From Gammaproteobacteria bacterium (lineage in GTDB: Bacteria; Pseudomonadota; Gammaproteobacteria; SZUA-229), in NCBI GenBank assembly GCA_022340645.1, contig JAJDNP010000153.1, positions 6,422-70,421 on the forward strand: 64,000 nucleotides of DNA. Reading direction: 5' to 3'. The position numbers and the translations under genes were made by a program. The notes under the pieces were generated by a model. The model saw nothing but the letters and a program-made list of their open reading frames with translations, was not told the DNA's origin and ran no database searches. Shown piece after piece: positions 2,777 to 25,603 of this stretch (position 1 is the first letter of the stretch; every line of letters begins with the position of its first letter).

Positions 2777-3049
2777 TTACTCGTTATTTTGTTCATTCTC
2801 GCTGTTTTTATTGCCGTCACCGCTGCGCATGGCGCTAATGCCTTTCATGCGCTGCTTGTGTACGATGTCAAGTTCCTTCTGCAGCCGGTCGCGTTTGCGT
2901 TCATCGCCGGTGGTTTCGAGTTTTTGCTGCAATGCCTTCTCCCTGGATTTCAGTTCCTTGAGAATAGACTTGAGCTGTTTGCGGTGTTTCTTGCGTTTTT
3001 CGACAGCCGGATCAAGCAGGTCGCCAAGTTTATCAAGCAGTTTTTTCAT
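2777..3049 (-). CDS. Small lysine/arginine-rich coiled-coil hypothetical protein (~90 aa)
   Basis: ORF track gives 2777..3184 but that start overlaps the upstream Na/Pi gene by 150 nt; internal ATG at 3047-3049 (MKKLLDKLGDLL...) has GAGGA 11-15 nt upstream; product is highly charged (KKHRKQLKSILKELKSREKALQQKLETTGDERKRDRLQKEL). No family recognised. Confidence 0.4.
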   Translation of the reverse strand: MKKLLDKLGDLLDPAVEKRKKHRKQLKSILKELKSREKALQQKLETTGDERKRDRLQKELDIVHKQRMKGISAMRSGDGNKNSENEQNNE

Positions 3050-4901: not shown

Positions 4902-5065
4902 GACTAATTATATATTGAAAATGAGACGATATTTGCGTCTGTCTTTACCGCGTGAGTTCGGTAAGGTCACAGGCTGTCGGCAGCGAGATGTTTCACTGTT
5001 TCATCACCGCTGCTGAATTTGACTGTGATAAGAGCCTGGTACTAGCAGCTATTGATCCCTCAAAG

Positions 5066-11891: not shown

Positions 11892-14826
11892 TATTCAGCC
11901 GAAATTAACCATACGACGCATTGCCCTGAAAGAGATAACACTGTTTTTTGCGTCCCCCATTGCCTACCTGTTCCTGGGGACATTTGCAGCGATTACCCTG
12001 TTTGTCTTTTTCTGGGGAGAGTCCTTTTTTGCACGCAACATCGCCGATGTGCGGCCGCTGTTTGAGTGGATGCCGGTGCTGCTGATTTTTCTTAGCGCCA
12101 CCCTGACCATGCGCCTGTGGAGTGAAGAACGCCGCAGCGGCACGCTGGAATACGTGCTCACCCAGGCAGCGCCATTGTGGCATTTTGTTGCAGGTAAATT
12201 CATTGCCTGTCTTTTTCTGCTGGTTGTGGCGCTGATAGTGACGCTGCCATTGCCGGTTACCGTCGCCATTATCGGCAAGCTCGACTGGGGGCCGGTGCTG
12301 GCGGGTTATCTCGCCACGCTGTTGATGGGTGCGGCCTACCTGAGTATCGGTTTATTCGTCTCGGCGCGCAGTGATAACCAGATTATCAGCCTGATTGTCG
12401 CCAGCCTGGTCAGCGGCATGTTTTACCTTGTGGGTACGCCGACCATTACCGACTTCTTTGGCAACCAGGCAGGTGAGTGGCTGCGGCTGCTCGGCATGGG
12501 TTCGCGTTTTGAAGCCATTACCCGCGGTGTGCTGGACCTCAGGGATCTCTATTATTACATCAGCATCGTGCTGGTGTTTCTCTCGTTAAACACGCTGGTG
12601 CTGGAAAAAGAGCGCTGGACAACACATGGCCAGCGTGCGCATCACAAGCAGTGGCAGCTGGTGACCCTGCTGGTTGTGCTGAATGCACTGGTGGCGAATC
12701 TCTGGCTTGGCCAGATGAATAAATTACGGATCGATGTCACCGAGGGTGACCAGTATTCGATTTCGGATGCGACCCGGAGTTACCTGAGCCAGCTGCAGGA
12801 GCCATTATTAATCAGGGGTTATTTCAGCAGCAAGACGCACCCGCTGCTGGCGCCCCTGGTGCCGCAGATGCGCGATCTCATTCGTGAATATGAAATTGCG
12901 GGACAGGGCAGGCTGCGCGTGGAATTTGTCGATCCGACGACCGACCCGGAGGCGGAGAAAGAGGCCAATGAAAAATACGCCATCCAGCCGGTGCCTTTCC
13001 AGGTGGCCGACCGTTACCAGGCGTCCATCGTCAGCTCCTACTTTAATGTGCTGGTGCAGTACGGCGATGAATACCAGGTGCTGGGCTTTCGCGACCTGAT
13101 TGAAATCAAGGCGCGCAGTGAAACCGATATCGATGTGCAGTTGCGTAACCCTGAATATGACCTGACGCGCGCCATTAAAAAGGTGATCAACAGTTACCAG
13201 GCGGGCGGCAACCTGTTTGATACCGTGAAGGGGAAACTGGCATTCAACGGCTACTTCTCGGCGAATGACCGCTTGCCGGAAAAGCTGGCGGATTTTAAAC
13301 AGGACGTGCAGGGTGTGTTGAATGAATTCAAGACGCAGGCGGCGGGCCGGCTGTCGGTCAATATTGTTGATCCCGACGCGGACAACGGCAAGGTGGCACA
13401 GCAGATCAACGAGGATTACGGCTTCAAGCCCATGACCACCAACCTTCTAAGCGATGAAAAGTTTTACTTTTACATGACGCTGAGCAATGGCGATAATATC
13501 GTGCAGATCCCGTTTGGTGATATTTCAAAGGAGGAGTTCAGGCGAAATCTTGAAGCGGGCATCAAGCGCTTTGCCAGCGGTTTTACCAAAACGGTGGCGC
13601 TGGTAACGCCGAAAATCGATTATTCTGCCGGTAGGTACGGCCAAAGCGGCCCACGCTTTTCACAGCTGGAAACTTTTCTGGGCACCGACCTCAATGTCAA
13701 CCGGGAAGACTTGAGCGATGGTTCTGTCGCCGGTGATGCCGATGTACTGCTGCTGGCGGCGCCGAAAGACCTGGATGAAAAACAGCTGTTCGCGGTGGAC
13801 CAGTTTCTGATGCAGGGTGGCACGGTGATTGTTGCCAGCTCGCCCTACAGCGCCAGCCTGACCAACAGCAGTTTAACGGTACAGAAAAACCACAGCGGAC
13901 TGGAAAGCTGGCTGCAGCATAATGGCCTGGCTATCGAGGACAAACTGGTGCTTGATCCGCAGAACGCATCCTACCCGGTGCCGGTGGCACGTAATATCGG
14001 CGGCTTCCAGTTCCAGGAACTGCGCATGCTGGACTACCCTTATTTTGTTGATGTCCGGGACGATGGCTTGAATCAGGACAGCCTGATCACCTCTGAACTG
14101 CCGCAGGTGACCCTGGCCTGGGCATCACCCATCGATATCGATAAGGGAAAACAGGGCCAGCGCACCATCACCAGGCTGTTGAGCAGCAGTGACAAGGCCT
14201 GGCTGTCTTCCTCGCTGGATGTCATGCCAAAAGTGACCCGCCAGGGAATCAGCGCCTTTGTGCCGCAGGGCAGGCAGGCGGCACGCCTGCTAGGCGTTGT
14301 CAGCCAGGGCCGCTTCGATTCGTATTTCGCGGGCAAGGCCTCGCCGCTGATTGAAGAGGACAGGCCGGGCACAGCGAAAGACGATACAGAAAAAGACAGC
14401 ACAGGGAAAGACGATAGCGGGCAGAAAAAATCTGCACAGAAAACGACCGACAGTGCGTCGCTGCAGCTCGGCCGTGTTATCGCACGCTCCCCGGAGTCGT
14501 CCCGCATTATTCTGTTCAGCTCGAATGATTTTCTGCGCGACCAGGTTATCCAGCTCGCGGGCAGCGCCCAGCAGACGAAATACCTGAACACCCTGCAGCT
14601 GCTGGCCAACACGGTGGACTGGTCGCTGGAAGATGCCGGACTGCTGAGTATTCGTTCGCGGGGGCACTTCAACCGTACGCTGCCGCCAATGGAGCAGAGC
14701 ACCCGGATGTTCTGGGAGTATCTCAATTACGGCCTGGCGGCTTTCGCCCTGCTAATCATCGCGCTGCTGGAGCGCCGCATCCGACGTATGCGTCAACAGC
14801 GCTATGTTGAACTTCTGGCCAGCTAA
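11881..14826 (+). CDS. Fused ABC-2 type permease (GldF-like, N-terminal 6 TM) and GldG-like ABC-transport auxiliary domain
   Basis: 981-aa ORF: N-terminal ~240 aa polytopic ABC-2 permease, then large periplasmic GldG-like region, C-terminal TM anchor (LNYGLAAFALLIIALL); genomic linkage with ABC ATPase and DUF4340. Confidence 0.75.
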   Translation: MPHDIQPKLTIRRIALKEITLFFASPIAYLFLGTFAAITLFVFFWGESFFARNIADVRPLFEWMPVLLIFLSATLTMRLWSEERRSGTLEYVLTQAAPLWHFVAGKFIACLFLLVVALIVTLPLPVTVAIIGKLDWGPVLAGYLATLLMGAAYLSIGLFVSARSDNQIISLIVASLVSGMFYLVGTPTITDFFGNQAGEWLRLLGMGSRFEAITRGVLDLRDLYYYISIVLVFLSLNTLVLEKERWTTHGQRAHHKQWQLVTLLVVLNALVANLWLGQMNKLRIDVTEGDQYSISDATRSYLSQLQEPLLIRGYFSSKTHPLLAPLVPQMRDLIREYEIAGQGRLRVEFVDPTTDPEAEKEANEKYAIQPVPFQVADRYQASIVSSYFNVLVQYGDEYQVLGFRDLIEIKARSETDIDVQLRNPEYDLTRAIKKVINSYQAGGNLFDTVKGKLAFNGYFSANDRLPEKLADFKQDVQGVLNEFKTQAAGRLSVNIVDPDADNGKVAQQINEDYGFKPMTTNLLSDEKFYFYMTLSNGDNIVQIPFGDISKEEFRRNLEAGIKRFASGFTKTVALVTPKIDYSAGRYGQSGPRFSQLETFLGTDLNVNREDLSDGSVAGDADVLLLAAPKDLDEKQLFAVDQFLMQGGTVIVASSPYSASLTNSSLTVQKNHSGLESWLQHNGLAIEDKLVLDPQNASYPVPVARNIGGFQFQELRMLDYPYFVDVRDDGLNQDSLITSELPQVTLAWASPIDIDKGKQGQRTITRLLSSSDKAWLSSSLDVMPKVTRQGISAFVPQGRQAARLLGVVSQGRFDSYFAGKASPLIEEDRPGTAKDDTEKDSTGKDDSGQKKSAQKTTDSASLQLGRVIARSPESSRIILFSSNDFLRDQVIQLAGSAQQTKYLNTLQLLANTVDWSLEDAGLLSIRSRGHFNRTLPPMEQSTRMFWEYLNYGLAAFALLIIALLERRIRRMRQQRYVELLAS

Positions 14827-14837
14827 GGAGGTAAACA

Positions 14838-15806
14838 ATGAGCAAATCACGACTCTGGTTAAGCGGCCTGCTGCTACTGCAAATACTGCTGGCCACGGGC
14901 ATATTCATTTCCACCCGTTCTGCGCAGAGCGGTTATGAAGCCAGGCCGCTATTAGCCTTTGATCCGGCGGCAGTTAATAAAATCACCGTGAGCTCGAGTG
15001 ATGATGAAGTCACTTTACTAAAGAACCATGGCGGCTGGTCACTGCCTGGCCTGAAAGGTCTGCCCGCTAATGCGGGCAAGCTGCAGGCCGCGCTTGAGAA
15101 GCTTGCAGGCCTGCAGTCGACCTGGCCGGTGACGACCACGGCAGGCAGCCACGAGCGGTTTGAGGTGGCGGCGGACAAGTTCCAGCGCAGGCTAAGGCTT
15201 TATCAGCATGACAAACTTGCCGGTGAACTCTTCCTCGGCACATCACCAGGATTCAGAAAAGTGCATGTACGGCCGTCTGGCGACAACAACGTCTATGCCG
15301 TGGCGATTAACACCTATGACTTCCCGGCCAGGGAGCAGGACTGGCTGGATAAAGAGCTGCTTGCAGTGAAAGATGTTGCGGCAATCAGCGGTCCTGACTA
15401 TGCGCTGATAAAAAAGGACAGGCAATGGCAGTTTGAAGATACCCAAAAACCTGACGAAAACTCCGAGCTTGATGCCGGCAAGGCTGGGCAGCTTGGCGAG
15501 GCGCTGGCTTCCCTGCGTGTCACCGGTGTGGCCGATAAAGCGCCCGAGTTTACCGCGGAAAACACGGTCACGCTTGATGTCACAGGCCAGGCAGCAGGTA
15601 AGGAAAAATGGCAGTTTCAGCTGCTGAAGAAAGATAACCAGTATTATGTAAAACGCAATGACAGGGAACAGGTTTTCACCCTGAGCCAGTATGATTACGA
15701 TCATTTGGCCGGAGTAAAGATGGCGGACCTCAAGGTGGCGAAGAAGCAACATTTGCAGGAAGATGCTGTCAAACCAGTTGTTAGCAATGCTGTAGAGGGA
15801 GGGTAA
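14838..15806 (+). CDS. DUF4340 domain protein (periplasmic partner of GldG-type ABC systems)
   Basis: 322-aa ORF with strong SD (AAGGAGG), N-terminal signal/anchor; position immediately downstream of GldG-like gene matches conserved arrangement. Confidence 0.6.
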   Translation: MSKSRLWLSGLLLLQILLATGIFISTRSAQSGYEARPLLAFDPAAVNKITVSSSDDEVTLLKNHGGWSLPGLKGLPANAGKLQAALEKLAGLQSTWPVTTTAGSHERFEVAADKFQRRLRLYQHDKLAGELFLGTSPGFRKVHVRPSGDNNVYAVAINTYDFPAREQDWLDKELLAVKDVAAISGPDYALIKKDRQWQFEDTQKPDENSELDAGKAGQLGEALASLRVTGVADKAPEFTAENTVTLDVTGQAAGKEKWQFQLLKKDNQYYVKRNDREQVFTLSQYDYDHLAGVKMADLKVAKKQHLQEDAVKPVVSNAVEGG

Positions 15807-15949: not shown

Positions 15950-17314
15950 ATGACTAAAAAACTGGTCTCGTTTCTATTTATCCTGCTCTATAGCCTGTGG
16001 ATGCAATCAGCAATTGCGGCAATACCAATGGTCGATGCAGAGGGCAAACCCTTCCCGTCTTTGGCGCCGATGCTTAAAAATGTTATTCCGGCAGTGGTGA
16101 ATATTTCGACAACATCTAAACAGCAAAACAAAACCAATCCCCTGTTAAACGATCCTTTTTTCAGGCGTTTCTTTAATATTCCTGAGCACCAGTACCGGGG
16201 AGAGTCGCCGCAGATGCAGCGCAGTGCAGGCTCGGGTGCCATTGTTAATGCGGCCGACGGTATTGTCATGACCAACTATCACGTGGTCGACGGTGCAGAC
16301 GAAGTCCAGGTATCGTTGATTGACGGCAGGAGTTTTAAGGCGGAAGTCATCGGCACCGATCCGGAAGTGGATATCGCGGTAGTGAAAATTGATGCAGGTG
16401 ATTTAAAGCAGGTAAGCATCGCTGATTCCAGTTCGCTGGAGGTGGGTGATTTTGTGGTAGCCATCGGTAACCCGTTTGGACTGGGGCAGACCGTGACAAC
16501 CGGTATTGTCAGCGCACTCGGCCGCAGCGGCCTGGGCATAGAAAGCTATGAAAACTTCATCCAGACAGATGCCTCGATCAATCCCGGAAACTCGGGTGGT
16601 GCGCTGGTTAATTTAAAGGGCGAGCTTGTCGGTCTCAATACCGCGATTATCGCATCCGGCGGCGGCAATGTCGGTATCGGCTTTGCAATACCGGTCAATA
16701 TGGCGAGAGCGAGTATGGACCAGATCATTCGGCATGGCGAAGTTAAACGCGGCCAGATCGGTATTGGCATACAGGATATCACGCCTGATTTAAGGCAGGC
16801 TTTTAACCTGGAGAACGGCCTGGCAGGCGTGCTGGTCACCCGGGTCATTGAAGATTCACCTGCAGAAGGCGCCGGACTGAAGTCCGGTGATATTGTACTC
16901 GAAGTCGACGGCAGTGCTGTGCGTTCGGCCAGTGAGCTGCGAAACCGTGTTGGCATGAAAGCCATCGGTGAAAAAGTTCAGCTGAAGTTTTTACGCAATG
17001 GCGATGAAAAAACTGTTGATGTAAAAGTCGGCGAACCTGTCGCCCTGAATGCCACCGATGCAACGCTTCACCCGCTGCTCGCCGGGGTCACGTTCGAGAA
17101 CGATCCTGATGGCAAAGGCGTTCGCGTGGCCGGTATACAGGCAGACTCGCCTGCCATGTACAGCGGACTGCAGACGGGTGATGTTATCGTGTCCGCCAAC
17201 AGACAACCGGTTACAGACCTGCTTTCGTTAAAGCAGGCACTGGAGCGCAGCAAAAACTCGTTGCTGCTGCACATTAACCGTAAGGGCGGCTCATTATTTA
17301 TAGTTATTCGTTAG
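15950..17314 (+). CDS. degQ: Periplasmic serine endoprotease DegQ/DegP (HtrA family, trypsin domain + 2 PDZ)
   Basis: Catalytic triad context (TNYHVVDGA, DIAVVKID, GNSGGALVN) plus two PDZ segments; ORF track start 15941 is GTG, first ATG at 15950 has GAGGTG 6 nt upstream. Confidence 0.9.
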   Translation: MTKKLVSFLFILLYSLWMQSAIAAIPMVDAEGKPFPSLAPMLKNVIPAVVNISTTSKQQNKTNPLLNDPFFRRFFNIPEHQYRGESPQMQRSAGSGAIVNAADGIVMTNYHVVDGADEVQVSLIDGRSFKAEVIGTDPEVDIAVVKIDAGDLKQVSIADSSSLEVGDFVVAIGNPFGLGQTVTTGIVSALGRSGLGIESYENFIQTDASINPGNSGGALVNLKGELVGLNTAIIASGGGNVGIGFAIPVNMARASMDQIIRHGEVKRGQIGIGIQDITPDLRQAFNLENGLAGVLVTRVIEDSPAEGAGLKSGDIVLEVDGSAVRSASELRNRVGMKAIGEKVQLKFLRNGDEKTVDVKVGEPVALNATDATLHPLLAGVTFENDPDGKGVRVAGIQADSPAMYSGLQTGDVIVSANRQPVTDLLSLKQALERSKNSLLLHINRKGGSLFIVIR

Positions 17315-17388
17315 TGTTTAAGATATTAACTAATAGTAACTCGAATATAGTCTGCAATTTACAAGCTAAAAACTTTTTAACAGCTGAG

Positions 17389-17447
17389 GCGCGGAGACGC
17401 AGAGTTATTTATAAATATAGAGCTGATGTTTGCTCTGCGTCTGCGCA
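17389..17447. repeat. Long inverted repeat / stem-loop (14-bp arms GCGCGGAGACGCAGAG ... CTCTGCGTCTGCGC, ~30-nt AT-rich loop)
   Basis: Read directly in the degQ 3' intergenic region. Confidence 0.5.
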
Positions 17448-17504
17448 CGAAACTGTTTCGTTAAAGCTCATGCGGTAAAACATCGAACATAAAACAACAG
17501 GCAG

Positions 17505-17531
17505 AAAAACCGGGTGCTTTACCGGTTTTGT
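17505..17531. terminator. Bidirectional rho-independent terminator between convergent degQ and TPR genes
   Basis: aaaaCCGGgtgctttaCCGGtttt: 8-bp perfect stem-loop with A-run upstream and T-run downstream, serving both strands. Confidence 0.65.
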
Positions 17532-17553
17532 TTCCTTCGGCACACATGGCGCG

Positions 17554-18861
17554 TTATTTTTTACCGGTCTGGCGCGCACGTTCGAGCCGGTTTCTGAAAC
17601 CGGCGGGTATATGCATGCCAAGTTTCTCTGCTTCAGCCAGCTGCTGGAATGCCTGGTCGAACTGTTTGAGGTCGGCATATACCCTTATCAGATCGATTCG
17701 CATTTCAGCGGAGCTGCTGTTTATTTTTACCGCCTGCTGTAACAGGTCCCGGCCACGGGATAAATTACCTTCGCCTGCTGCTATTATGCCGAGGCCATGC
17801 AGTGCCCGGCTTTTGAGGTTGTCCTTGCCGGCATGGTCCAGTACCCACTGGTAATTTGCACCGGCATCCGGTTTGCGGGTGATGAACTGCAGATTTGCAA
17901 GCCCGAGCCGGTATACTGTGATGTCCGGATATTCCTGGATCAGTTCATTAAATATTTTTTCGGCTTCATCATAGCGACGTAAAATGGTTAGAACCATGGC
18001 GTAATTCGACTTGCCTTCGACTGTCAGATTATAGTGCTGTTTCAGCAGGCTGTATAAGTGCTCGGCTTTACGCCATTTGTGATTGCGCATGTACATGCGA
18101 GCGATTTCATGCATGTTGGCGGGCAACCGGCTTCTGCTTAGCGTTTCCGCCTTTATACTGCTCGGATAAACAATGTCGCCTTCATCTGTTGCCTGGCTGG
18201 CTGACGGGATGAGACTTTGATCGATATCGGTATATTTTGCTATCTGTAATAACCTGGCCCTGATCCGTGAGGAAGTCGGGGCAAGCTGTGCTGCTTTGAG
18301 CATATATTTTTTGCTGGCTGCATACTGCCTGTCAGTCATCAGCAGCTGAGCGTAATAATAATTCGTATATAGATTATCCGGCGCGAGCTCATAGGCTTTT
18401 TGTATCGCGCTGATCGCCCTGTCCAGTTCCCCAACCGAGGCATAGGTTTCGGCCAGCAGGTAACAGACGTCAAGCGAAGACGGTTTCAGCTTATAAGCCG
18501 CTTCGATATATGCGATGGTTTTATCACTTGAGTCCAGTAAGGTTATATAAGCCAGCAGGTATGGCCATACATGGTTTTCAGGATCCAGCGAGCGGGCGTT
18601 CTGCAATGCGGGGATTGCTTCGGAGCGCAGGCGGTTAGCATACAATATCTTGCCGTATTCTCCCCAGTCATCCGCTGACTGTTTTCCGGAAACGAGATTT
18701 TCGTATGCTTTCTCTATGGTTTGTTTTACCAGTGGCGGCGTGTTGTCGAGCGCCGGTAAATGTGCTTCGTGCAGTTGTTCACCGCTGGCGGCAAAAATAC
18801 ATAAGGAAAGCAATAATCCTGCTAACAGCAGTACTTTCGGTAGATATCTGTGTGATAGCAT
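17554..18861 (-). CDS. Secreted tetratricopeptide-repeat (TPR) protein
   Basis: 435-aa ORF with N-terminal signal peptide (MLSHRYLPKVLLLAGLLLSLCIFAAS) and repeated 34-residue A/Y/L-rich TPR-like units throughout. Confidence 0.7.
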   Translation of the reverse strand: MLSHRYLPKVLLLAGLLLSLCIFAASGEQLHEAHLPALDNTPPLVKQTIEKAYENLVSGKQSADDWGEYGKILYANRLRSEAIPALQNARSLDPENHVWPYLLAYITLLDSSDKTIAYIEAAYKLKPSSLDVCYLLAETYASVGELDRAISAIQKAYELAPDNLYTNYYYAQLLMTDRQYAASKKYMLKAAQLAPTSSRIRARLLQIAKYTDIDQSLIPSASQATDEGDIVYPSSIKAETLSRSRLPANMHEIARMYMRNHKWRKAEHLYSLLKQHYNLTVEGKSNYAMVLTILRRYDEAEKIFNELIQEYPDITVYRLGLANLQFITRKPDAGANYQWVLDHAGKDNLKSRALHGLGIIAAGEGNLSRGRDLLQQAVKINSSSAEMRIDLIRVYADLKQFDQAFQQLAEAEKLGMHIPAGFRNRLERARQTGKK

Positions 18862-19092
18862 CGTAATTTCAGAGACATTAACAGTTCCTTCGGTCTGACA
18901 GGGGGCGTATATATTGTCGCCGGGATAATACTAGGCCAGTTTTATGTATTAGTAAATTGGCAGGCGCCGCTGGCGCTATGGCTTTGAAATATGAAAAAAG
19001 CCCGGCATGCCTGCACCGTTTGTTAAAAATTATGATCCGTGTAAATATTTTTTTATGATAATTAATCAAAGTTACCTTAAAATAATCAGGCT

Positions 19093-21849
19093 ATGAACTC
19101 TTTGCATCAAGGAGTCAATGACTCACTATCGAGACTTGTATTCTACCTGATCGTCGTGTTCGGGATCATACTGCTTGCAAATGGCGCTTATCTTGCTCTC
19201 ATCGATGCGATAGAACGGTTTTCCGGTACCGTTATTCAAAACAGCAGTTATCAGTACATGTTCGCTTTCCACCTGCTGCTGGGTATCATAGCCATGCTGT
19301 TAACGGTTATTTACGTATATCGTCATAGCCGACGTGCAGCCAAAAGCAGGAATTCTGCAGCCGCTAAACAGGGGCTGCGCCTGGTAGTCATCCTGGCGGT
19401 GATTTATGTCACGGGTATACTGCTTACCCGCGGTTTTATCGACCTGGACAACTACGTGCCGTATATCCGGCTGCTGTTTTACTGTTTTCATGTCGCTTTG
19501 CCGCTGCTTGCAATATTCATTTATCTTAAGCACCGTCGCCTGGGCGACAACAGGAAACAGTTTCTGCAAAGGCTGCTGGTACCGCTGCTGCTGGTTTTCG
19601 GCGCCGGGCCATTGCTGGCGCACATTCCCGGCGGCAAATCCAGTGATGTTTCAGAAACCATGACGCCATCAACCCGGGCGTCATCCTTTTTACCGTCACT
19701 GATCAAAACATCTAACGGCCGCTCAATTGCTGAAGGCGAGTTGATGCGTACGGATTACTGCCTGCAGTGCCATGAAGACAGCCACGAACGCTGGAGCCAT
19801 AGTGCTCACCGCTACTCGTCGTTCAATAATCCGTTTTATCGCTTTTCGATAGACAACCTCCGGGAAAAGTTGAAACAGCGCGATGGCAATGTTGAAGCGT
19901 CGAGATTATGTGCCGGTTGCCATGACCCGATCCCGTTACTGTCGGGTGAATTCGACCGGGAAGATTTTTCTGCCGATAATCACGCATCGGCGTCTGCCGG
20001 ACTTACATGTAGCGTGTGCCATTCGATTACCAGTATCGATTCCGTTCGCGGCAATAACGATTTTACTGTCACCGTCCCTGAGCATTACCCGTTTGCTTTT
20101 AGCGACTCGGCTGTACTGCACTGGTTCAGTAATTTACTGATCAAGTCCAATCCCGATTTTCACCGCAGAATGTTTTTGAAGCCATTGCACAAAACAGCAG
20201 AATTTTGCAGCACCTGTCACAAGGTCCACATACCGCCGGAAATCAACCGCTATGTATGGTTGCGGGGGCAGGACCATTATGATTCGTTCCTGCTGAGCGG
20301 TGTTTCCGGCCACAGCGTCAGCAGTTTCTATTACCCGGAGATGGCTTTTGATCGTTGCGCCAGTTGCCACATGCCGCCGCTCAGGTCAGATGAATTCGGC
20401 GCCAGCCATGATAAGGATAATTTACTCGGCAATGAGCGTTTTCTTCACGATCACCTGTTCGCCGCGGCAAATACGGCGCTCACGCATGAACTGGAGAATG
20501 ACAACCAGGACATCCTTAATCTGAGGCAGTCGTTCCTGGCAAAGGCCGCGACGGTCGATATCATCGGTATCAGGCAGCAGGGCAGGATCGACGGTAAACT
20601 GGTCAGTCCGCTGGAAGGGGCCGACCTCAGGCTGCAGCCGGGTGAGACGTATTTACTCGAGGTCGTGGTCAGGACGACTGGCATGGGGCACGCGTTTACC
20701 CAGGGTACGTCTGATTCAAACCAGCTATGGCTGGAGCTGCAGCTGGTGAATAATGGCCGTATCTTCGCGCAAAACGGCGTCCTGGATGCAGGCTCCGCCA
20801 GGCTGAGCGCTAATAGCCACATGATCAACAGCTACCTGATTGATAAAGCGGGAAACCGGATCAGTCGAAGAAACGCCGAGGACATTCACACGGTGTTATA
20901 TGACCACCAGATTCCCCCGGGCGCCGCTGATGCGATTCACTACCGTTTTACCATTCCACGGGAGATGGCAGGCAGTATTGATATTGCCGCGGCGCTGAAA
21001 TACAGGAAGTTCGATACCGATTATTACCTGCTGTCTACCGGCAGTGACGGTGATGTTAATCCATTGCCGGTGACCACAATTTCCCGGGACCGGGCCGCGT
21101 TAAAACTGACTGGTGCGGAAGAAGATATGCTCGAAAACGAAAAAGTGCCGAAAAAAGCCTTATGGGAAAGGCTGAATGATTATGGCATCGGGCTGTTCAG
21201 GAAGCCGGACAAATCCCAGTTCCGCCAGGCCGAAGCGGTTTTTAAAAGGGTTGAGGCACTCGGCAGGCAGGAGGGGACCCTGAATCTCGCCCGCCTGTAT
21301 TACAGTGACGGCCGGCTGGAACAGGCTTCTGCCGCGCTGGACAGACTGGATTATGCCGCCATCGACAATCCATGGACAGTGACCTGGCTCGCTGCCCTGA
21401 TCGACAGGGACAACGGATATCTCGATGAAGCCATCACCCTGTTCGAAAAGCTGATCAATACACAATGGTCTTCAGCGGCGGCCAGGGGTTTTGATTTTTC
21501 GAAAGATTACCGCCTGTTGAATACCTGCGCGTCGACGCTGTTAACTCGCGCCAGAATGGAAAAGCCAGGGTCGACCAGCCGTCAGGCGTTTATCGACCGC
21601 GCCAGCGCCATGTATGAACGCGCACTGTCTCTCGACCCCGAAAACGTGGCCGCGCATTATGGCATGATGCAGGTCTACAGGCTCGAAGGAAAACCGGAGC
21701 AGGCGAAAATACAACAGCAGTTACACAAGCTGTATAAACCTGATGATTCGTCCAGGGACACCGCCATTGGTCTCGCCAGGGAGAAGGACCCTTATGCAGA
21801 TCTTACCGCGAATCCTGTTGTTATCTATGATCTGGTCAAAGTCAATTAA
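19093..21849 (+). CDS. Membrane-anchored multihaem c-type cytochrome (5 CXXCH) with C-terminal TPR domain
   Basis: 918 aa: N-terminal ~190 aa with ~5 predicted TM helices; five haem-binding motifs CLQCH, CAGCH, CSVCH, CSTCH, CASCH between residues ~220-430; beta-rich middle; C-terminal ~200 aa TPR-like (LNLARLYYSDGRLEQA..., AAHYGMMQVYRLEGKPEQA). Confidence 0.75.
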   Translation: MNSLHQGVNDSLSRLVFYLIVVFGIILLANGAYLALIDAIERFSGTVIQNSSYQYMFAFHLLLGIIAMLLTVIYVYRHSRRAAKSRNSAAAKQGLRLVVILAVIYVTGILLTRGFIDLDNYVPYIRLLFYCFHVALPLLAIFIYLKHRRLGDNRKQFLQRLLVPLLLVFGAGPLLAHIPGGKSSDVSETMTPSTRASSFLPSLIKTSNGRSIAEGELMRTDYCLQCHEDSHERWSHSAHRYSSFNNPFYRFSIDNLREKLKQRDGNVEASRLCAGCHDPIPLLSGEFDREDFSADNHASASAGLTCSVCHSITSIDSVRGNNDFTVTVPEHYPFAFSDSAVLHWFSNLLIKSNPDFHRRMFLKPLHKTAEFCSTCHKVHIPPEINRYVWLRGQDHYDSFLLSGVSGHSVSSFYYPEMAFDRCASCHMPPLRSDEFGASHDKDNLLGNERFLHDHLFAAANTALTHELENDNQDILNLRQSFLAKAATVDIIGIRQQGRIDGKLVSPLEGADLRLQPGETYLLEVVVRTTGMGHAFTQGTSDSNQLWLELQLVNNGRIFAQNGVLDAGSARLSANSHMINSYLIDKAGNRISRRNAEDIHTVLYDHQIPPGAADAIHYRFTIPREMAGSIDIAAALKYRKFDTDYYLLSTGSDGDVNPLPVTTISRDRAALKLTGAEEDMLENEKVPKKALWERLNDYGIGLFRKPDKSQFRQAEAVFKRVEALGRQEGTLNLARLYYSDGRLEQASAALDRLDYAAIDNPWTVTWLAALIDRDNGYLDEAITLFEKLINTQWSSAAARGFDFSKDYRLLNTCASTLLTRARMEKPGSTSRQAFIDRASAMYERALSLDPENVAAHYGMMQVYRLEGKPEQAKIQQQLHKLYKPDDSSRDTAIGLAREKDPYADLTANPVVIYDLVKVN

Positions 21850-21872
21850 TTGCTTTATGTGTAAATGAAAAC

Positions 21873-23645
21873 ATGAAAAAAATATCTGTTATAAGCATCA
21901 GCCTGGTGGTCTTCGCCTGTATTGCCTGTGATAAAACCCAGCAGGCTACGCAGGACAAACCCGTTTCAACAAAGCCGTTGCAGGCGGCTGAGCAGGCTAT
22001 GCCCGAGATCCGGTTTGAAGAGATATCCGCCAAAGCAGGCATTGATTTTATCTATGAAGACGGTGCGCAGGGTGACAAGTGGGCGCCCGAGACCATGATC
22101 GGCGGCGTGGCGTTTGTCGATTACGATAACGATGGTGACCCGGACCTGCTGGCGGTGTCAGGCACCAGCTGGCAGCATTATGAAGATAACAGCGGTCCGG
22201 TGACGGTGGCGCTTTTTCGAAACGATGGCGGCGGTGGATTTACCAATGTTAGCACTGAAGTGGGACTGGACTTTAACGGTTATGGTTTCGGTTTTGCCAT
22301 CGGTGATATTGACGATGATGGCTGGCAGGATATCTATATAACCGCGCTGGGAGAGAACCGGCTCTACAGGAATAATAAAGGTATTTCATTCACGGATGTT
22401 ACCCGTGAATATCATGTTGCCGGTGAAAAGCAGGGCTATAGCACCAGCGCGGCATTTTTTGATGCTGATAATGACGGTGACCTTGATCTGTATGTTGCCA
22501 ACTATGTCCGCTGGAACAAAGAAATCGATTCCCGGACAAATGATAATGTTATCGGCCTGGCGAAAGCTTACAGCGGACCAAAGGTATTCGAGGGAGTGCA
22601 GCCCTATTTTTTCAGGAACGATGGCGCATCAGGTTTCAGGGAGGAAGCAAAGGCATCGGGCCTGAATGTCAACACCCATGGTGCAAAATCGCTGGGCAGG
22701 GCGCTGGGCAAAACGCTGGGTATATTACCGATCGATCTAAACAGTGATGGCTATATCGATCTGATCGCGGCAAATGACATGGTGCGGAACATTGCATTCA
22801 TTAATGACGGTAAGGGCGGGTTTGTCGAGCAGGGAGAAGAGATCGGACTTGCCTATAATAATTTCGGCACGGCGACTGCGGCGATGGGTATCGATGCTGC
22901 CTGGCTGACGGATGATCTAACGCTGACCATCGCCATGGGAAATTATGCCTCTGAAATGACGTCTATCTATCGCCTCGATGCACAGCATTTCGTGTTCTCG
23001 GATGACGCCCCGCTAACCGGTATCGGGCCGAAATCCCGTAATGCACTGACTTTCGGTGTTCTGTTTATTGATCTTGACCTGGATGGACGCATGGACATGG
23101 TGCAGGCCAATGGTCATGTCGAGCCGGATATAGCGCTGGAGCAGGAATCACAGTCATACAGACAGCCGGCACAGATATTCTGGAATTGTGGACCAGGATG
23201 CGCCAGGCCGTTCGTACTTATGCCTTTGCCATTAATCGGCGACCTGGCTCAACCAATGGTTGGACGGGGCCTTGCGGCAGCGGATATAGATAATGATGGT
23301 GATATCGACCTTGCAATCTCTGAAATCGCTGGCAGGCTCCGCCTGTTTGAAAATAAACAGCAGGCAGCAAATAACTGGCTCAAACTCAGACTTGCGCAAG
23401 CGGATAAAAACAAATTTGCTATCGGCGCCATGGTCGAAATCCATTATGATGACCATGTTCAAAAACAGCAGCTCATGCCCGCAAGAAGTTATGTTTCCCA
23501 GGTGGAAAACATACTTACCTTCGGTCTGGGAAAATCGAACCGTGTTGATACGATTAAAATTACCTGGCCGGACGGACAGCAGCAGATAATAAACGATGTC
23601 GCGGCTAACCAGCTGTTGAAGCAGGTCAAACAAAATAACAACTGA
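21873..23645 (+). CDS. CRTAC1-family lipoprotein (FG-GAP/VCBS repeats + ASPIC/UnbV C-terminal domain)
   Basis: 590 aa; lipoprotein signal MKKISVISISLVVFACIAC; repeated Ca-binding FG-GAP motifs DYDNDGDPDLL, IDDDGWQDIY, DADNDGDLDLY, DIDNDGDIDLA; C-terminal UnbV/ASPIC-like region; 23-nt gap to upstream cytochrome gene suggests co-transcription. Confidence 0.75.
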   Translation: MKKISVISISLVVFACIACDKTQQATQDKPVSTKPLQAAEQAMPEIRFEEISAKAGIDFIYEDGAQGDKWAPETMIGGVAFVDYDNDGDPDLLAVSGTSWQHYEDNSGPVTVALFRNDGGGGFTNVSTEVGLDFNGYGFGFAIGDIDDDGWQDIYITALGENRLYRNNKGISFTDVTREYHVAGEKQGYSTSAAFFDADNDGDLDLYVANYVRWNKEIDSRTNDNVIGLAKAYSGPKVFEGVQPYFFRNDGASGFREEAKASGLNVNTHGAKSLGRALGKTLGILPIDLNSDGYIDLIAANDMVRNIAFINDGKGGFVEQGEEIGLAYNNFGTATAAMGIDAAWLTDDLTLTIAMGNYASEMTSIYRLDAQHFVFSDDAPLTGIGPKSRNALTFGVLFIDLDLDGRMDMVQANGHVEPDIALEQESQSYRQPAQIFWNCGPGCARPFVLMPLPLIGDLAQPMVGRGLAAADIDNDGDIDLAISEIAGRLRLFENKQQAANNWLKLRLAQADKNKFAIGAMVEIHYDDHVQKQQLMPARSYVSQVENILTFGLGKSNRVDTIKITWPDGQQQIINDVAANQLLKQVKQNNN

Positions 23646-23866
23646 AGCGGGCGCCGAGGCTGCCGCATGCACGATTGTCCTGTTTTATGAATAACATCCA
23701 TGTTATTCCTCCTGCGGTGTATCTCATCATTGCAGAACCCGCACTTCGCGGGGAATGAGGCGCTCGCCCACGCTGAAAAACACGCGTGCTCAGACAGTTT
23801 TCACAGAAAGCCCATGATAACGGCACAGCCTCAATGGCTTGTTTAAGGTGGATGTAACGTCAAAAG

Positions 23867-23917
23867 CAAAAACAAAAACAAAAACAAAAACAAAAACAAA
23901 AACAAAAACAAAAACAA
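23867..23917. repeat. Hexanucleotide microsatellite (CAAAAA) x ~8.5
   Basis: Perfect tandem copies read directly in the intergenic region downstream of the CRTAC1 gene. Confidence 0.95.
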
Positions 23918-24004
23918 GCCTAAAACCTGTAAGCTCACCTTCATTAAGTTATGCTGTCAGAGAAAAATCGGCCATGTGCAGACTGCCATGAAAAACTATT
24001 TTTA

Positions 24005-24163
24005 CCGCAAATGAACGTAAATACACGCAAATAAAAAACTATTTAAGTCCATAGATAAAAACGTTCTCAGGCTTATAAATATCTGTATTCATCTGCGTTT
24101 ATCTGTGGATAATCTACTTTTTGCTTTTAAATATTTGTGTGTATTTGCGTTCATTTGCGGAAG
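24005..24163. mobile_element. Miniature inverted-repeat element copy B (~158 bp) related to copy at 9271-9430
   Basis: Left end accgcaaatgaacgtaaatacacgcaaataaaaaactatttaag; right end gtgtgtatttgcgttcatttgcggaag is the reverse complement (CCGCAAATGAACGCAAATACACAC); same termini and AAAAACTAT internal motif as copy A. Confidence 0.7.
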
Positions 24164-24471
24164 AATCTAAAAGTTTTTTCTTTTTCATCAACGGGCATTC
24201 AGGGTCGGTTCTTTACCTTCGGAAGTATTTTTCGTGAGTCCGTTAACAAAAACACACTGTATCCTGAATAGCGGGCTCCCATTTATTTACATCAACAGGG
24301 CATGTACGGCCAGGAAAGGACTGCCATACAAATAAAATCCCGCCACGCTGTCTGTCATGCTACCAGGCGGGTCCTGTCCCTGCGCTGCCGGCTGTATATA
24401 TGCCATCGATATGATGGCGTGAAAGAGCAAATGAACCACCGCTTCCGTCAGGCGGCGTTAGTGTCGGGCAA

Positions 24472-25473
24472 TTATCTGTCGATTGATTCGCGGTATTGTA
24501 CCGGCGATTTGCCAGTCCATTTCTTGAACGCCCTGGAAAACGCGCTCTGCTCGGAGAAACCGAGCAGAAAAGCGATTTCGGTCATGCTGGTGCCGGTGTC
24601 CCTGATGTATTGCATTGCCACCATTTTACGTACGCTTTCCAGCACCTGCCGGAACGAAGTGCCCTTGTCTCTAAGCTTGCGCTGCAGGGTGCGTTCACTG
24701 AGGTGGAGTTCCCGCGCTATCATCTGGTCGGTGACCTTGCCGGAAGGCAGTTGATCGATCATTAGCGACTGGATCTGTTGTACCAGGTCACCCTTCTTTA
24801 TCCTGACCAGGTACTTCATCAATATCTCGTCATGCATCAGCGCGAGTTCCTTGTTCGCGGTCGGTAATTTCCTGTCGATATCGCCAGTGGCAAATGTCAT
24901 GCTGTACTCGCTGGCTTCGTAGACCAGCGGTGACTGGAAGTAACTGGAGAACACCTCGTGGCAGTCGGGCATGGCGTGCTGAAAGGTGATCTCAACCGCC
25001 TTCAGTTCATCGCCAAAGTTTATCCGGCTGATACGCATCAGCACTGCCATCGTAACCTGATACTGTTGTGGGTATGACATTGCCTCATCGGGTATCTTCA
25101 CTGTTACTTTCAGTCCGCGGCCCGTATCTGACAGGCAAAGATCAAGACCTTCCGACACAACATGAACAAAACGCTCGGCCCTGCCGAACGCTGTTCTCAG
25201 GCTGGTGCTGACCAGCCAGGCATAGCCCAGTGCGCCCATGAAGGACGGATGCCAGTAATGCGCCATTTTTATACCAAAACACGGATCGCCAAGCGCTTCA
25301 ACAGCATGGCCCCACAGACTGGTAAGTGCATCAAGACTGATGCGTGCCCTGGGGTTGCCTCTTAATTCCGGTGATATGCCTGCTTTAATGAACAGCTGTG
25401 CCGGGTCACACCCGTTTTCCTCAAGATGTTCCCATAGCATGTTTGTTGCCGGTGCGAAATGTGTGAGTGCCAT
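24472..25473 (-). CDS. AraC-family transcriptional regulator (N-terminal AraC-type ligand-binding domain, C-terminal dual HTH)
   Basis: 333-aa ORF; C-terminal ...ARELHLSERTLQRKLRDKGTSFRQVLESVRKMVAMQYIRDTGTSMTEIAFLLGFSEQSAFSRAFKKWTGKSPVQYRE is a canonical AraC HTH pair. Confidence 0.85.
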   Translation of the reverse strand: MALTHFAPATNMLWEHLEENGCDPAQLFIKAGISPELRGNPRARISLDALTSLWGHAVEALGDPCFGIKMAHYWHPSFMGALGYAWLVSTSLRTAFGRAERFVHVVSEGLDLCLSDTGRGLKVTVKIPDEAMSYPQQYQVTMAVLMRISRINFGDELKAVEITFQHAMPDCHEVFSSYFQSPLVYEASEYSMTFATGDIDRKLPTANKELALMHDEILMKYLVRIKKGDLVQQIQSLMIDQLPSGKVTDQMIARELHLSERTLQRKLRDKGTSFRQVLESVRKMVAMQYIRDTGTSMTEIAFLLGFSEQSAFSRAFKKWTGKSPVQYRESIDR

Positions 25474-25603
25474 TCAGTTTATCCAGAGTTCAGCTTGTTA
25501 AACGTTAAATCATTGGCGTATTTTGTCAAGGCATACATCGCCAGGCTGGCTAAATTATCAACATGTACCGGTTGCTAAATAACATTGCTGAAACGTGAGC
25601 TGA

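Follow-up and report, generated by a model that had tools for sequence, protein, structure and literature searches.

What does a 918-residue cytochrome with a membrane domain, five c-type haem motifs and a TPR domain do in the cell envelope, and with which neighbouring gene products does it act? The question is raised by a 64,000-nt stretch of gammaproteobacterial DNA (hereafter, the window), in which an initial annotation had proposed a redox-active membrane scaffold that recruits a periplasmic beta-propeller protein through its TPRs, as a novel electron-transfer or assembly module. Our analysis supports this interpretation in part. The window holds a real three-gene cassette, composed of the membrane cytochrome-TPR protein, a calcium-binding CRTAC1-like propeller and a secreted TPR protein, and we propose with moderate confidence that it would form an inner-membrane, quinone-linked electron conduit on which the calcium propeller subunit docks.

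The three-gene cassette and its conservation

The cytochrome gene (19093..21849, + strand) encodes a five-helix membrane domain, a pentahaem c domain, an Ig-like domain and a TPR domain, and its product is deposited at NCBI as 'hypothetical protein' (MCG6939281.1, from a Gammaproteobacteria MAG). Divergently upstream, as first described, the ORF list contains the gene for a secreted all-TPR protein of 435 aa (17554..18861, - strand), which has a signal-like N-terminal hydrophobic segment (residues 5-30) and matches multiple TPR families in Pfam, including TPR_2 (1.7e-20). The AT-rich region of 231 nt between these two genes (18862..19092) is presumably the promoter region of both transcription units; it contains a single, weak sigma-70-like match (19055-19083, + strand), and the count of such matches is not above the shuffled expectation. 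Downstream of the cytochrome stop, a spacer of 23 nt (21850..21872, + strand), the same distance as originally given, was scanned and contains no terminator-like site. It is followed by the gene for a CRTAC1-family protein of 590 aa (21873..23645, + strand), identified by its ORF, its Pfam matches and its NCBI name, 'CRTAC1 family protein'.

The architecture of the cytochrome is no one-off and belongs to a large, multi-phylum, unannotated family. At E<=1e-30, its homologues form ~500 clusters (50% identity) from Gammaproteobacteria, Xanthomonadales, Verrucomicrobiota and Latescibacteria, all of which carry generic annotations only. Conservation of the five haem motifs and of the whole architecture in hundreds of homologues is far beyond chance. 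When gene neighbourhoods were compared, the pairing seen in the window was found to be conserved: in 62 of 69 non-redundant loci, the cytochrome gene is directly followed by a CRTAC1-like gene of the same strand, an adjacent partner being absent in the other 7. The stop of the cytochrome usually overlaps the start of the partner (33/47 pairs, 24 of these by 4 nt), and the pair is found in Pseudomarimonas arenosa, Latescibacteria, Verrucomicrobiota and several gammaproteobacterial lineages. The 435-aa TPR protein completes the cassette but is less constant than the other two, with TPR-only genes present in 24 of 84 related loci. Orthologues occupy the equivalent position in loci L002 and L009, the latter encoding a protein 30% identical over 417 aa (2e-64) beside a cytochrome that is 46% identical to the one in the window. 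Homology searches thus returned genes that do co-occur and no routine characterised family, and we found no curated family, solved structure or paper covering the three-gene cassette.

In the 590-aa partner, a signal or lipoprotein-type N terminus precedes an FG-GAP propeller (residues ~45-505) and the predicted UnbV_ASPIC domain (residues 516-582; Pfam, 9.1e-24). The four calcium-binding FG-GAP repeats of the initial annotation correspond to four FG-GAP_3 stretches in Pfam (7.9e-32), but the translation contains six calcium-type loops (D-x-D/N-x-D-G-x-x-D), not four. The N terminus is likewise of the lipoprotein type that had been claimed, but the lipobox is imperfect (VFAC or CIAC), so the protein is only probably a lipoprotein; it is certainly membrane-tethered or secreted. 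Partners are membrane-tethered, most of them by a TM anchor that comes after a charged tail, while a few, including that of the window, carry lipoprotein-type signals. Among 48 aligned partner proteins, the Asp residues of the calcium loops are invariant, nearly all invariant residues are D, N or G of these loops, and no Cys or His is invariant. The partner shows no redox cofactor site, which leaves its need for electrons unexplained and counts against the conduit model.

Human CRTAC1 (PDB 9etn) matches the partner at 1.5e-16, and both vertebrate CRTAC1 and UnbV share with it the FG-GAP calcium-loop propeller and the UnbV_ASPIC domain; the bacterial partner differs from them in having no further Pfam domain, in being membrane-tethered and in its translational coupling to a cytochrome. 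In vertebrates, CRTAC1 is a protein of the extracellular matrix and a ligand of the Nogo receptor, and the UnbV protein of enediyne cassettes is secreted and has no known role; neither is known to act with a cytochrome. A second, independent case of a CRTAC1-family FG-GAP gene between haem-c genes is found in the HZS-like clusters of Planctomycetota, Syntrophobacter and Paludibaculum, the function of which is also unknown (PMC12758564). Those clusters encode HZS-alpha-like and CCP/MauG-like beta-gamma subunits as their haem proteins, which have no relation to the TM-pentahaem-TPR protein.

Haem, Ig-like and TPR domains of the cytochrome

Exactly five CXXCH motifs, the number first reported, are present in the periplasmic pentahaem c domain (residues ~200-470; 19690..20502, + strand): C223LQCH, C273AGCH, C306SVCH, C372STCH and C422ASCH. 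All five are invariant in 43 full-length homologues (43-83% identity), among which at least six His residues of the domain beyond those in CXXCH are invariant as well. Pfam matches residues 223-311 to Cytochrome_C554 (7e-7), and a profile search against the PDB matched residues 222-319 to the low-potential cytochrome c552 of T. tepidum (5ze8, E 9.7e-6), the only cytochrome with a sequence-profile match below 1e-4. The same structure was the best Foldseek match of the periplasmic part (5ZE8, E 2e-8, TM-score of 0.64 by target). Because its 502 alignment columns, against a target of 385 residues, exceed what the haem domain could account for by itself, the match extends into an Ig-like beta-sandwich (residues ~486-672; 20548..21108, + strand), which was delimited by AlphaFold2 strands and invariant columns and sits between the haem and TPR domains. 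Conserved positions in this domain include the motif G532-H533-x-F-T-x-G-T-x-D-S-N-x-x-W546, together with H576, R593-N594, Q606-I-P-P-G610 and Y637-R-K-F640.

The pentahaem cap and Ig-like sandwich thus share their fold with T. tepidum c552 and the ExtKL/MccSep family. In c552, as here, five c haems are followed by an Ig-like beta-sandwich, but c552 is a soluble protein of ~400 aa with neither membrane domain nor TPR, is ~15% identical to the cytochrome, and is described as being of unknown function in papers that cite it. ExtKL/MccSep (PDB 9wt8), a polysulfide/selenite reductase that gives weak sequence matches around haem 1, and the 'PHC' family of cable bacteria and Geobacter have the same mushroom architecture, in which an Ig-like stem carries an alpha-helical cap with five haems, as described for MccSep (bioRxiv 10.1101/2025.11.18.688581). 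Unlike the cytochrome, MccSep is soluble and tetrameric and lacks TM and TPR domains. The Ig-like domain and this fold relationship had been missed in the earlier reading, as had the probable b-haem site described below.

Could the cytochrome itself be the enzyme? In that case, the membrane-bound cytochrome would reduce or oxidise a small periplasmic molecule in a quinol-dependent reaction, at an active site made of one c haem and conserved Ig-like loops, as in MccSep/ExtKL or NrfA-type enzymes, and the CRTAC1-like propeller and TPR proteins would have accessory roles in capturing substrate, in stability or in assembly. The PHC fold family does include a true enzyme in MccSep, in which the Ig-like domain extends the catalytic residue to haem 2, and the partner is without redox residues. 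Conservation of the Ig-like domain (H533, D541-S542-N543, W546, H576, R593-N594, QIPPG, YRKF) is unusually strong for a domain that only acts as a spacer and could mean that the cytochrome is an enzyme, a point that we count against the conduit model. Very weakly, formamidase-like CN_hydrolase genes in 12 loci and the CRTAC1/hydrazine-synthase-like linkage point to nitrogen-compound chemistry. MccSep catalysis, however, depends on a His/Cys-ligated haem 2 and a selenocysteine contributed by the Ig-like domain (bioRxiv 10.1101/2025.11.18.688581), and this site is missing from the cytochrome, since no Cys outside CXXCH is invariant among the 43 homologues and the ORF contains no in-frame UGA. 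The NCBIfam ExtKL model gives 16.5 bits, well short of its cut-off of 250, and neither CXXCK nor another open-site signature is present. Moreover, beyond the CXXCH motifs six His are invariant and three nearly so, which would suffice to give each of the five haems bis-His ligation, as is typical for proteins that only carry electrons. On balance, we consider a catalytic cytochrome unlikely.

No named respiratory cytochrome fits either, as had been recognised at the outset: all NCBIfam models stay below, and none comes near, its cut-off, and Pfam returns generic domains only, with no NapC/NrfH-type match. Members of the NapC/NirT/NrfH/CymA/TorC group are also membrane-anchored tetra- or pentahaem c cytochromes and link quinol to periplasmic reductases, but their membrane part is a single N-terminal helix, they lack b haem as well as Ig-like and TPR domains, and they are ~200-400 aa long.

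The C-terminal TPR array of the initial annotation is borne out by several Pfam TPR families across residues 700-875 (TPR_19 at 1.6e-10, and TPR_11) and by AlphaFold2 helices, which delimit a periplasmic solenoid (residues ~690-905; 21160..21807, + strand). It is the best-modelled part of the cytochrome (pLDDT 90-98), has fold matches to the TPRs of MamA, OGT and IFIT, and is kept in every long and short family variant examined.

The membrane domain and its invariant histidines

The N-terminal TM helices, initially put at about five, were recovered as five hydrophobic segments, all within residues 8-180, and as five long helices in the AlphaFold2 model (11-44, 51-82, 88-111, 123-150 and 157-177; pLDDT 84 and pTM 0.82 for the cytochrome). 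The domain so defined spans residues 11-177 (19123..19623, + strand). Loops 79-93 and 148-160 are positively charged, which by the positive-inside rule makes the N terminus cytoplasmic and puts the C terminus outside. Four His residues, H60 and H78 in TM2 and H133 and H147 in TM4, are paired at matching depths and are unchanged across phyla in the 43 full-length homologues. Within residues 1-200, four of the six His fall among 22 invariant columns (17-43 homologues, 23-46% identical in this region), an enrichment with a hypergeometric P of 0.0015. From the sequence, these four His suggest two b haems, and with them a cytochrome that would resemble the bc type.

A plain anchor without b haems is the other way to read this domain: a tethered pentahaem relay would then serve other redox proteins rather than quinones, and the TM His would have another role, for example in metal binding or helix packing. 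Simple anchoring is common among multihaem cytochromes, and the spacing of the His residues is unequal (18 residues in TM2, 14 in TM4). Neither Pfam, Foldseek nor hhalign gave a significant sequence or fold tie to known haem-b families: Foldseek of the TM model returned no significant match (E >= 0.27), its top ranks being mostly haem-b proteins (cytochrome b561, a bd-II oxidase subunit, STEAP and NOX); Pfam Ni_hydr_CYTB (PF01292) matched below threshold in six of 17 family members; and hhalign against E. coli FdnI was negative (probability 0.2%). However, one helix suffices for an anchor and five are conserved here, the four His do not vary across phyla even though identity in the TM sequence around them falls to 23-30%, and paired His at equal depths on two helices are the classical bis-His dihaem pattern, for which CbcL is a precedent. 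We judge a plain anchor to be distinctly unlikely.

The membrane domain of CbcL has reportedly been assigned to HydC/FdnI, by Zacharoff and colleagues in 2016. CbcL of Geobacter sulfurreducens is an inner-membrane bc-cytochrome and menaquinol oxidase that combines a dihaem-b membrane domain and a multihaem c domain in one polypeptide (PMC9129911), and the likeness lies in the design principle, in which electrons of the quinone pool pass through a bis-His c domain to periplasmic partners. CbcL has six helices, nine c haems and no CRTAC1 partner, whereas the cytochrome of the window has five helices, five haems, Ig-like and TPR domains and no detectable FdnI/PF01292 homology; the likeness is an analogy, not family membership.

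Recurrent neighbours and a proposed electron route

Besides the partner, recurrent neighbours of the cytochrome are limited to TPR proteins, TPR-CRTAC1 fusions and the CN_hydrolase of the 12 loci mentioned above, a cytoplasmic protein of amidase-like type. Membrane-bound multihaem quinol oxidases (CbcL, ImcH, CymA) feed porin-cytochrome-type conduits for extracellular electron transfer, and beta-propeller (NHL) proteins lie beside multihaem cytochromes in some of the corresponding clusters, but that the cassette is the inner-membrane end of such a conduit is very improbable. No outer-membrane beta-barrel or further multihaem cytochrome recurs near the cassette, no other multihaem ORF was found in the window, the hosts include the aerobic cultured Xanthomonadales species Pseudomarimonas arenosa, and in most members an inner-membrane tether holds the partner. 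It is scarcely credible that the cassette serves cytochrome c maturation or envelope assembly, with CcmH/CycH/NrfG-like TPR chaperones: the upstream TPR protein (43.0 bits, cut-off 42) and some relatives do match Pfam TPR_CcmH_CycH, but TPR families cross-match and generic TPR models give this protein higher scores, haem lyase and other Ccm/Nrf biogenesis genes do not recur in 84 loci, and a five-haem holo-cytochrome with conserved membrane His would be a client or carrier, not a chaperone.

In the quinone-linked conduit that we prefer, the 918-aa protein would be an inner-membrane bc-type cytochrome with its N terminus in the cytoplasm and its C terminus in the periplasm. Two b haems would most likely lie between TM2 and TM4, ligated by H60/H133 near the periplasmic face and by H78/H147 near the cytoplasmic face. 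The membrane domain would exchange electrons with the quinone pool, and these would travel along the five c haems, backed by the Ig-like domain and the rigidly attached TPR solenoid. The translationally coupled gene would supply a membrane-tethered, calcium-binding propeller without conserved redox residues, which, along with the soluble TPR protein, may dock on the TPR/Ig-like surface to build a complex where the inner membrane faces the periplasm. In it, the propeller would bind or position the substrate, and electrons would be supplied or removed by the cytochrome. That TPRs recruit the propeller, as originally envisaged, is what we infer from two things, the gene coupling and the TPR-CRTAC1 fusions in the same cassettes; the TPR domain of the cytochrome has no specific similarity to that of the fusions. 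The favoured direction would be from quinol through the haems to a periplasmic acceptor, since those relatives that have been characterised are low-potential or reductive. The cassette recurs across several bacterial phyla yet is uncharacterised, and it probably wires the membrane quinone pool to a periplasmic reaction.

Gene organization and conserved neighborhood of the cassette

An ORF check placed the three genes of the cassette at the coordinates, in the order and with the spacing proposed in the initial annotation: a 435-aa TPR protein on the minus strand (17554..18861; NCBI 'tetratricopeptide repeat protein'), with TPR throughout and a signal-like N-terminal segment; a divergent 918-aa cytochrome on the plus strand (19093..21849; NCBI 'hypothetical protein'); and a 590-aa CRTAC1-like protein, also on the plus strand (21873..23645; NCBI 'CRTAC1 family protein'), whose ORF begins 23 nt past the cytochrome stop. 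A motif scan and Pfam likewise agreed with the earlier description of the 918-aa protein as having five hydrophobic N-terminal segments, five CXXCH motifs and a C-terminal TPR region. There is no second multihaem ORF in the window besides the cytochrome, an Rfam scan of positions 17000-25600 gave no match, and neither promoter nor terminator scans gave matches above shuffled background.

Several other features of the window were recorded. The CRTAC1-like gene is followed on its 3' side by an unusually long spacer of ~825 nt (23646-24471) without a convincing ORF, across which an AraC-family regulator gene (24472..25473, minus strand) lies convergent with it; this spacer has no Rfam match, and near 23870-23920 it holds a short tandem repeat, one frame of which translates as (KT)n. 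Apart from two short stop-to-stop frames (116 and 128 aa), the only other CXXCH-containing ORF encodes 808 aa (33950-36376, plus strand) and is annotated by NCBI as a fatty acid cis/trans isomerase of 799 aa, starting nine codons later. Positions 10914-15806 (plus strand), 5' of a DegQ-like protease gene, encode an ABC ATPase, a 981-aa protein in which an ABC-2 permease is joined to a GldG-like ABC_transp_aux/DUF7088 domain, and a DUF4340 protein, a three-gene cluster that is not conserved beside the cassette in other genomes.

On four of six contigs encoding cytochrome homologues (P0004, P0055 of Pseudomarimonas arenosa, P0103 and P0007), a gene with FG-GAP_3 and UnbV_ASPIC domains lies directly 3' of the cytochrome gene. 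The Latescibacteria contigs (P0114) end just downstream, with a truncated FG-GAP_3 gene 3' of the cytochrome gene and several CRTAC1-like genes upstream, and the Tara contig L007 is the sole one of the six without a CRTAC1-like gene after the cytochrome. At this Tara Oceans locus, the cytochrome gene is followed by a gene for a 663-aa secreted protein with no Pfam match (L007:12937-14928), which may be a partner replacement. A metagenome scan with the cytochrome alignment added 80 loci, whose local ORF calls were searched with the window's CRTAC1-like protein. A CRTAC1-like gene comes next on the cytochrome's strand in 62 of the 69 non-redundant loci with enough downstream sequence, and among the seven exceptions one has a convergent CRTAC1-like gene and another has one 820 bp away. 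Partner starts overlap cytochrome stops in 33 of the 47 pairs with complete partners (24 of the 4-nt type; median distance -4 nt), and the cytochromes of paired loci are as little as 39% identical, implying that the coupling is ancient. The initial annotation had paired the two genes from the window; judged from gene order across these loci, the pair is conserved and translationally coupled.

Clustering of neighbors across 84 loci yielded just three other recurrent kinds: TPR-only proteins (~540 aa, 24 loci), TPR-FG-GAP-UnbV fusions (~1100 aa, directly 5' of the cytochrome gene in 9 of 48 loci) and a nitrilase-superfamily protein. No porin, further cytochrome or haem-lyase gene was recurrent in this set. 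The TPR regions of the cytochrome and the fusions share no specific homology (E 0.076), so that a 'Rosetta-stone' argument holds at the level of domain class only. Fusions of ~1070-1100 aa at four loci (L004:4693-8001, L080:4633-7944, L005:4700-7915 and L008:5663-8884) have an extra C-terminal ~420 aa without a Pfam match. The third kind, CN_hydrolase, is a cytoplasmic member of the nitrilase superfamily with distant similarity to formamidase or aliphatic amidase, scoring far below NCBIfam cut-offs; it was found at 12 loci, with its gene 5' of the TPR-CRTAC1 fusion gene (L004:3719-4693, L080:3668-4663 and ten other loci). The cytochromes of these 12 cassettes are 49-80% identical to each other, and CN_hydrolase may be functionally linked to the cassette. 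Orthologues of the window's own TPR protein are encoded at the same divergent position in L009 (30% identity over 417 residues, 2e-64) and in L002. In these two loci, the closest relatives of the cassette, small PEP-CTERM (exosortase-sorted) genes lie between the divergent TPR and cytochrome genes (L002:6846-7658 and 2899-4974; L009:8923-9720), where the window has just a 231-nt intergenic region.

Domain architecture and spread of the cytochrome

An AlphaFold2 model of the 918-aa cytochrome (mean pLDDT 84, pTM 0.82) was built from an alignment of 43 full-length homologues that are 43-83% identical. The model has four parts: a domain of five TM helices, a mostly helical haem domain (residues about 200-470) that holds the five CXXCH motifs, an Ig-like beta-sandwich whose strands follow directly (residues about 486-672), and a TPR solenoid (residues about 690-905), which is modeled with the highest confidence. 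Pfam matched Cytochrome_C554 (7e-7, residues 223-311) and several TPR families (residues 700-875). Among the 43 homologues, all five CXXCH motifs (C223, C273, C306, C372 and C422) are invariant, as are six more histidines of the haem domain (H239, H357, H366, H395, H407 and H454), with three others near-invariant; these conserved histidines suffice for bis-His ligation of all five c haems. No cysteine outside CXXCH is invariant in the same alignment. The beta-sandwich contains strikingly conserved motifs, namely GH533xFTxGTxDSNxxW, H576, R593-N594, QIPPG610 and Y637RKF.

The best structural match to the whole model is 5ZE8 (Foldseek E 2e-8; TM 0.64 on the target; 502 aligned columns), the penta-haem low-potential cytochrome c552 of Thermochromatium tepidum. 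When the PDB was searched with the family profile, 5ze8_A was matched over haems 1-3 (E 9.7e-6) and was the sole cytochrome below 1e-4, MccSep being next (3e-4); the single-sequence match to 5ze8 has an E of 0.0013. At the sequence level, homology to the pentahaem cytochrome (PHC) family is weak but significant. The PHC fold, a five-haem cap followed by an Ig-like stem, is common to ExtKL/MccSep of Geobacter, the cable-bacteria 'PHC' and PtdA. The five-CXXCH alpha-helical haem domain, the Ig-like sandwich that follows and the 5ZE8-type fold are common to this family and the cytochrome; whereas PHC proteins are soluble, periplasmic and equipped with a signal peptide, the cytochrome has a five-helix membrane domain and a C-terminal TPR region. 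The cytochrome is therefore a PHC-type domain inside a larger architecture (TM domain, PHC, TPR) unlike any described member. One alternative reading is that the cytochrome is itself the enzyme, with an active site formed from a haem and the Ig-like loops. The high conservation of these loops speaks for it, as does the precedent of MccSep, a polysulfide/selenite reductase that acts via a His/Cys-ligated haem 2 and a selenocysteine in the Ig-like domain (bioRxiv 10.1101/2025.11.18.688581); we nevertheless consider it unlikely.

In the model, the five TM helices span residues 11-44, 51-82, 88-111, 123-150 and 157-177. The loops that follow TM2 and TM4 are rich in Arg/Lys, so the N terminus should be cytoplasmic and the C terminus periplasmic, the orientation that haem c attachment requires. 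Within residues 1-200, identity falls to 23-46% among family members and only 22 columns are invariant, yet these include four of the six histidines of the region (hypergeometric P = 0.0015): H60 and H78 in TM2, and H133 and H147 in TM4. In the predicted topology, H60 and H133 lie ~ten residues from the periplasmic helix ends and H78 and H147 ~four from the cytoplasmic ends, a placement that would match the classical pattern of a transmembrane stack of two bis-His b haems. On conservation and topology, though not on family membership, this domain is likely to bind haem b: a PDB profile search with the domain gave no match, six of 17 members matched Pfam Ni_hydr_CYTB (PF01292) at sub-threshold levels only (best E 0.0022), and hhalign against E. 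coli FdnI was negative (probability 0.2%). When the domain was modeled separately (pLDDT 81.5), Foldseek gave no significant match either, and the top ranks (E >= 0.27) were mostly TM haem-b proteins (cytochrome b561, a bd-II oxidase subunit, STEAP and NOX5). A TM domain that is a mere anchor, devoid of b haem, would have to accommodate the four invariant histidines, and strikes us as improbable.

Several named systems were compared with the cytochrome. CbcL of Geobacter, which combines a dihaem-b membrane domain and nine bis-His c haems in one polypeptide, oxidizes menaquinol and reduces periplasmic carriers (PMC9129911). CbcL would be the closest functional analogue of the cytochrome, whose four invariant TM histidines, candidate b-haem ligands, lie at depths in TM2 that match those in TM4. 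Membership in the CbcL family was rejected, since no FdnI/PF01292 homology was found above threshold and five CXXCH motifs stand against nine c haems. NapC/NirT/NrfH/CymA proteins have a single N-terminal TM helix and a compact tetrahaem domain (pentahaem in TorC), as opposed to five TM helices here, and no such Pfam family was among matches at E <= 0.01, which bears out the earlier claim that the cytochrome is not NapC/NrfH-like. A selenoenzyme of the MccSep/ExtKL kind was also rejected (no invariant extra Cys, an ORF without UGA, and an NF040886 score of 16.5 bits against a cut-off of 250).

A word-indexed protein search with the cytochrome gave 4968 matches, including more than 100 full-length proteins (890-970 aa) at 43-47% identity, and the names on homologues are generic only ('tetratricopeptide repeat protein', 'multiheme c-type cytochrome', 'Cytochrome c554 and c-prime' and 'hypothetical'). 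An exhaustive HMMER search of 1.84 billion cluster representatives with residues 1-700 (TPR left out) recovered 2619 proteins at E <= 1e-3, 503 of them at E <= 1e-30. Among the named sources are Gammaproteobacteria MAGs, Pseudomarimonas arenosa (a cultured xanthomonad), Candidatus Latescibacteria and Verrucomicrobiota, and a scan of genome contigs with the single cytochrome sequence found one locus (Verrucomicrobiota). Unusually long family members contain only cytochrome and TPR domains, with no extra informative domain. This architecture is widespread, deeply conserved and uncharacterized, and is not peculiar to the window's genome, which qualifies the initial annotation's proposal of a novel module; its reading of the anatomy, the gene pair and the lack of a named respiratory family stands.

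The CRTAC1-like partner

Pfam found four FG-GAP_3 repeats (7.9e-32) and UnbV_ASPIC (9.1e-24) in the 590-aa partner, both above cut-offs and both as first described, and the partner matches human CRTAC1 (PDB 9etn) at 1.5e-16. Its calcium-type D-x-D-x-D-G loops number six rather than four, and the lipobox of the supposed lipoprotein is imperfect (VFAC or CIAC); if Cys19 were lipidated, the next residue would be Asp. In an alignment of 48 partner proteins, which have a median identity of 43% to that of the window, nearly all invariant positions are Asp/Asn/Gly residues in the calcium loops, alongside a few Glu, Lys, Arg, Trp and Tyr. No Cys or His is invariant among the 48, which leaves the propeller without an obvious redox centre. 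Vertebrate CRTAC1 has a C-terminal EGF-like domain, which the partner lacks: only three Pfam families match it, none of them EGF, and the protein ends 8 residues past UnbV_ASPIC.

In most partners, a charged (acidic) tail precedes a conserved I-G-x-A-F-R-W-S-L-like motif and a single hydrophobic helix, so that these proteins are likely to be N-terminally anchored in the inner membrane. The fuller motif, D-D-x-(V/I)-I-G-x-A-F-R-W-S-L, is found within the first ~60 residues of partners in L011, L014, L016, L020, L023, L040, L043 and other loci; it runs into the single TM helix at a cytoplasmic or membrane-interface position, and the lipoprotein-type version in the window does not have it. The window's partner and a few relatives (L002, L009 and L068) carry a short lipoprotein-type signal instead. 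In all versions, the propeller is predicted to be held at the membrane surface, facing the periplasm beside the cytochrome. CRTAC1-family genes have also been described between hydrazine-synthase-like haem-c genes in Planctomycetota, Syntrophobacter and Paludibaculum (PMC12758564), which suggests that in bacteria CRTAC1-like propellers repeatedly partner with c-type haem proteins.

Possible role of the cassette

No NCBIfam or Pfam family covers the cassette, the PDB holds no structure of it, and the searchable literature (CRTAC1, UnbV or FG-GAP paired with cytochrome, multiheme or TPR) does not describe it. Its parts are of known kinds (PHC domain, TPR, CRTAC1-type propeller and bc design), and the combination, the probable b2c5 set and the CRTAC1 pairing were unmatched in the sources checked. 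A cytochrome-biogenesis system is poorly supported: the upstream 435-aa TPR protein matches TPR_CcmH_CycH, which would point to CcmH/CycH/NrfG, at a borderline 43.0 bits (cut-off 42), lower than its own generic TPR scores, and Ccm/Nrf biogenesis (haem-lyase) genes are not among the recurrent neighbors at the 84 loci. A porin-cytochrome conduit is also poorly supported, with no beta-barrel or further multihaem genes in clusters shared by at least three of the 84 loci.

The evidence instead points to an inner-membrane bc-type cytochrome. In such a protein, a dihaem-b membrane module linked to the quinone pool would feed a five-haem periplasmic wire, and a membrane-tethered, stoichiometric calcium-propeller subunit and a TPR protein would dock on the rigid TPR/Ig-like platform. 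Electrons would flow from quinol outward, a direction for which we have a weak preference because the characterized PHC relatives are low-potential or reductive. Tentatively, and as a possibility that is still doubtful, the cassette may encode an unrecognized, widespread periplasmic redox complex in which the CRTAC1-like propeller is substrate-binding or catalytic and is wired to the quinone pool by the b2c5 cytochrome via the TPR dock. As Pseudomarimonas arenosa is cultured and carries the full cassette, this hypothesis is directly testable.

If correct, it would provide the first biochemical function for the bacterial CRTAC1/UnbV family, and would suggest why these propellers adjoin hydrazine-synthase-like haem proteins and sit in enediyne cassettes. 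The near-obligatory CRTAC1 pairing offers a first experimental route into a protein family whose conservation extends from bacteria to humans. The cytochrome family itself comprises about 500 clusters (at 50% identity) from at least four phyla and from marine, soil and freshwater metagenomes, all with only generic annotation. If the membrane domain binds b haems, these proteins would form a new family of single-polypeptide, quinone-linked bc-cytochromes, which would bear on how many environmental bacteria, aerobes included, move electrons into the periplasm.
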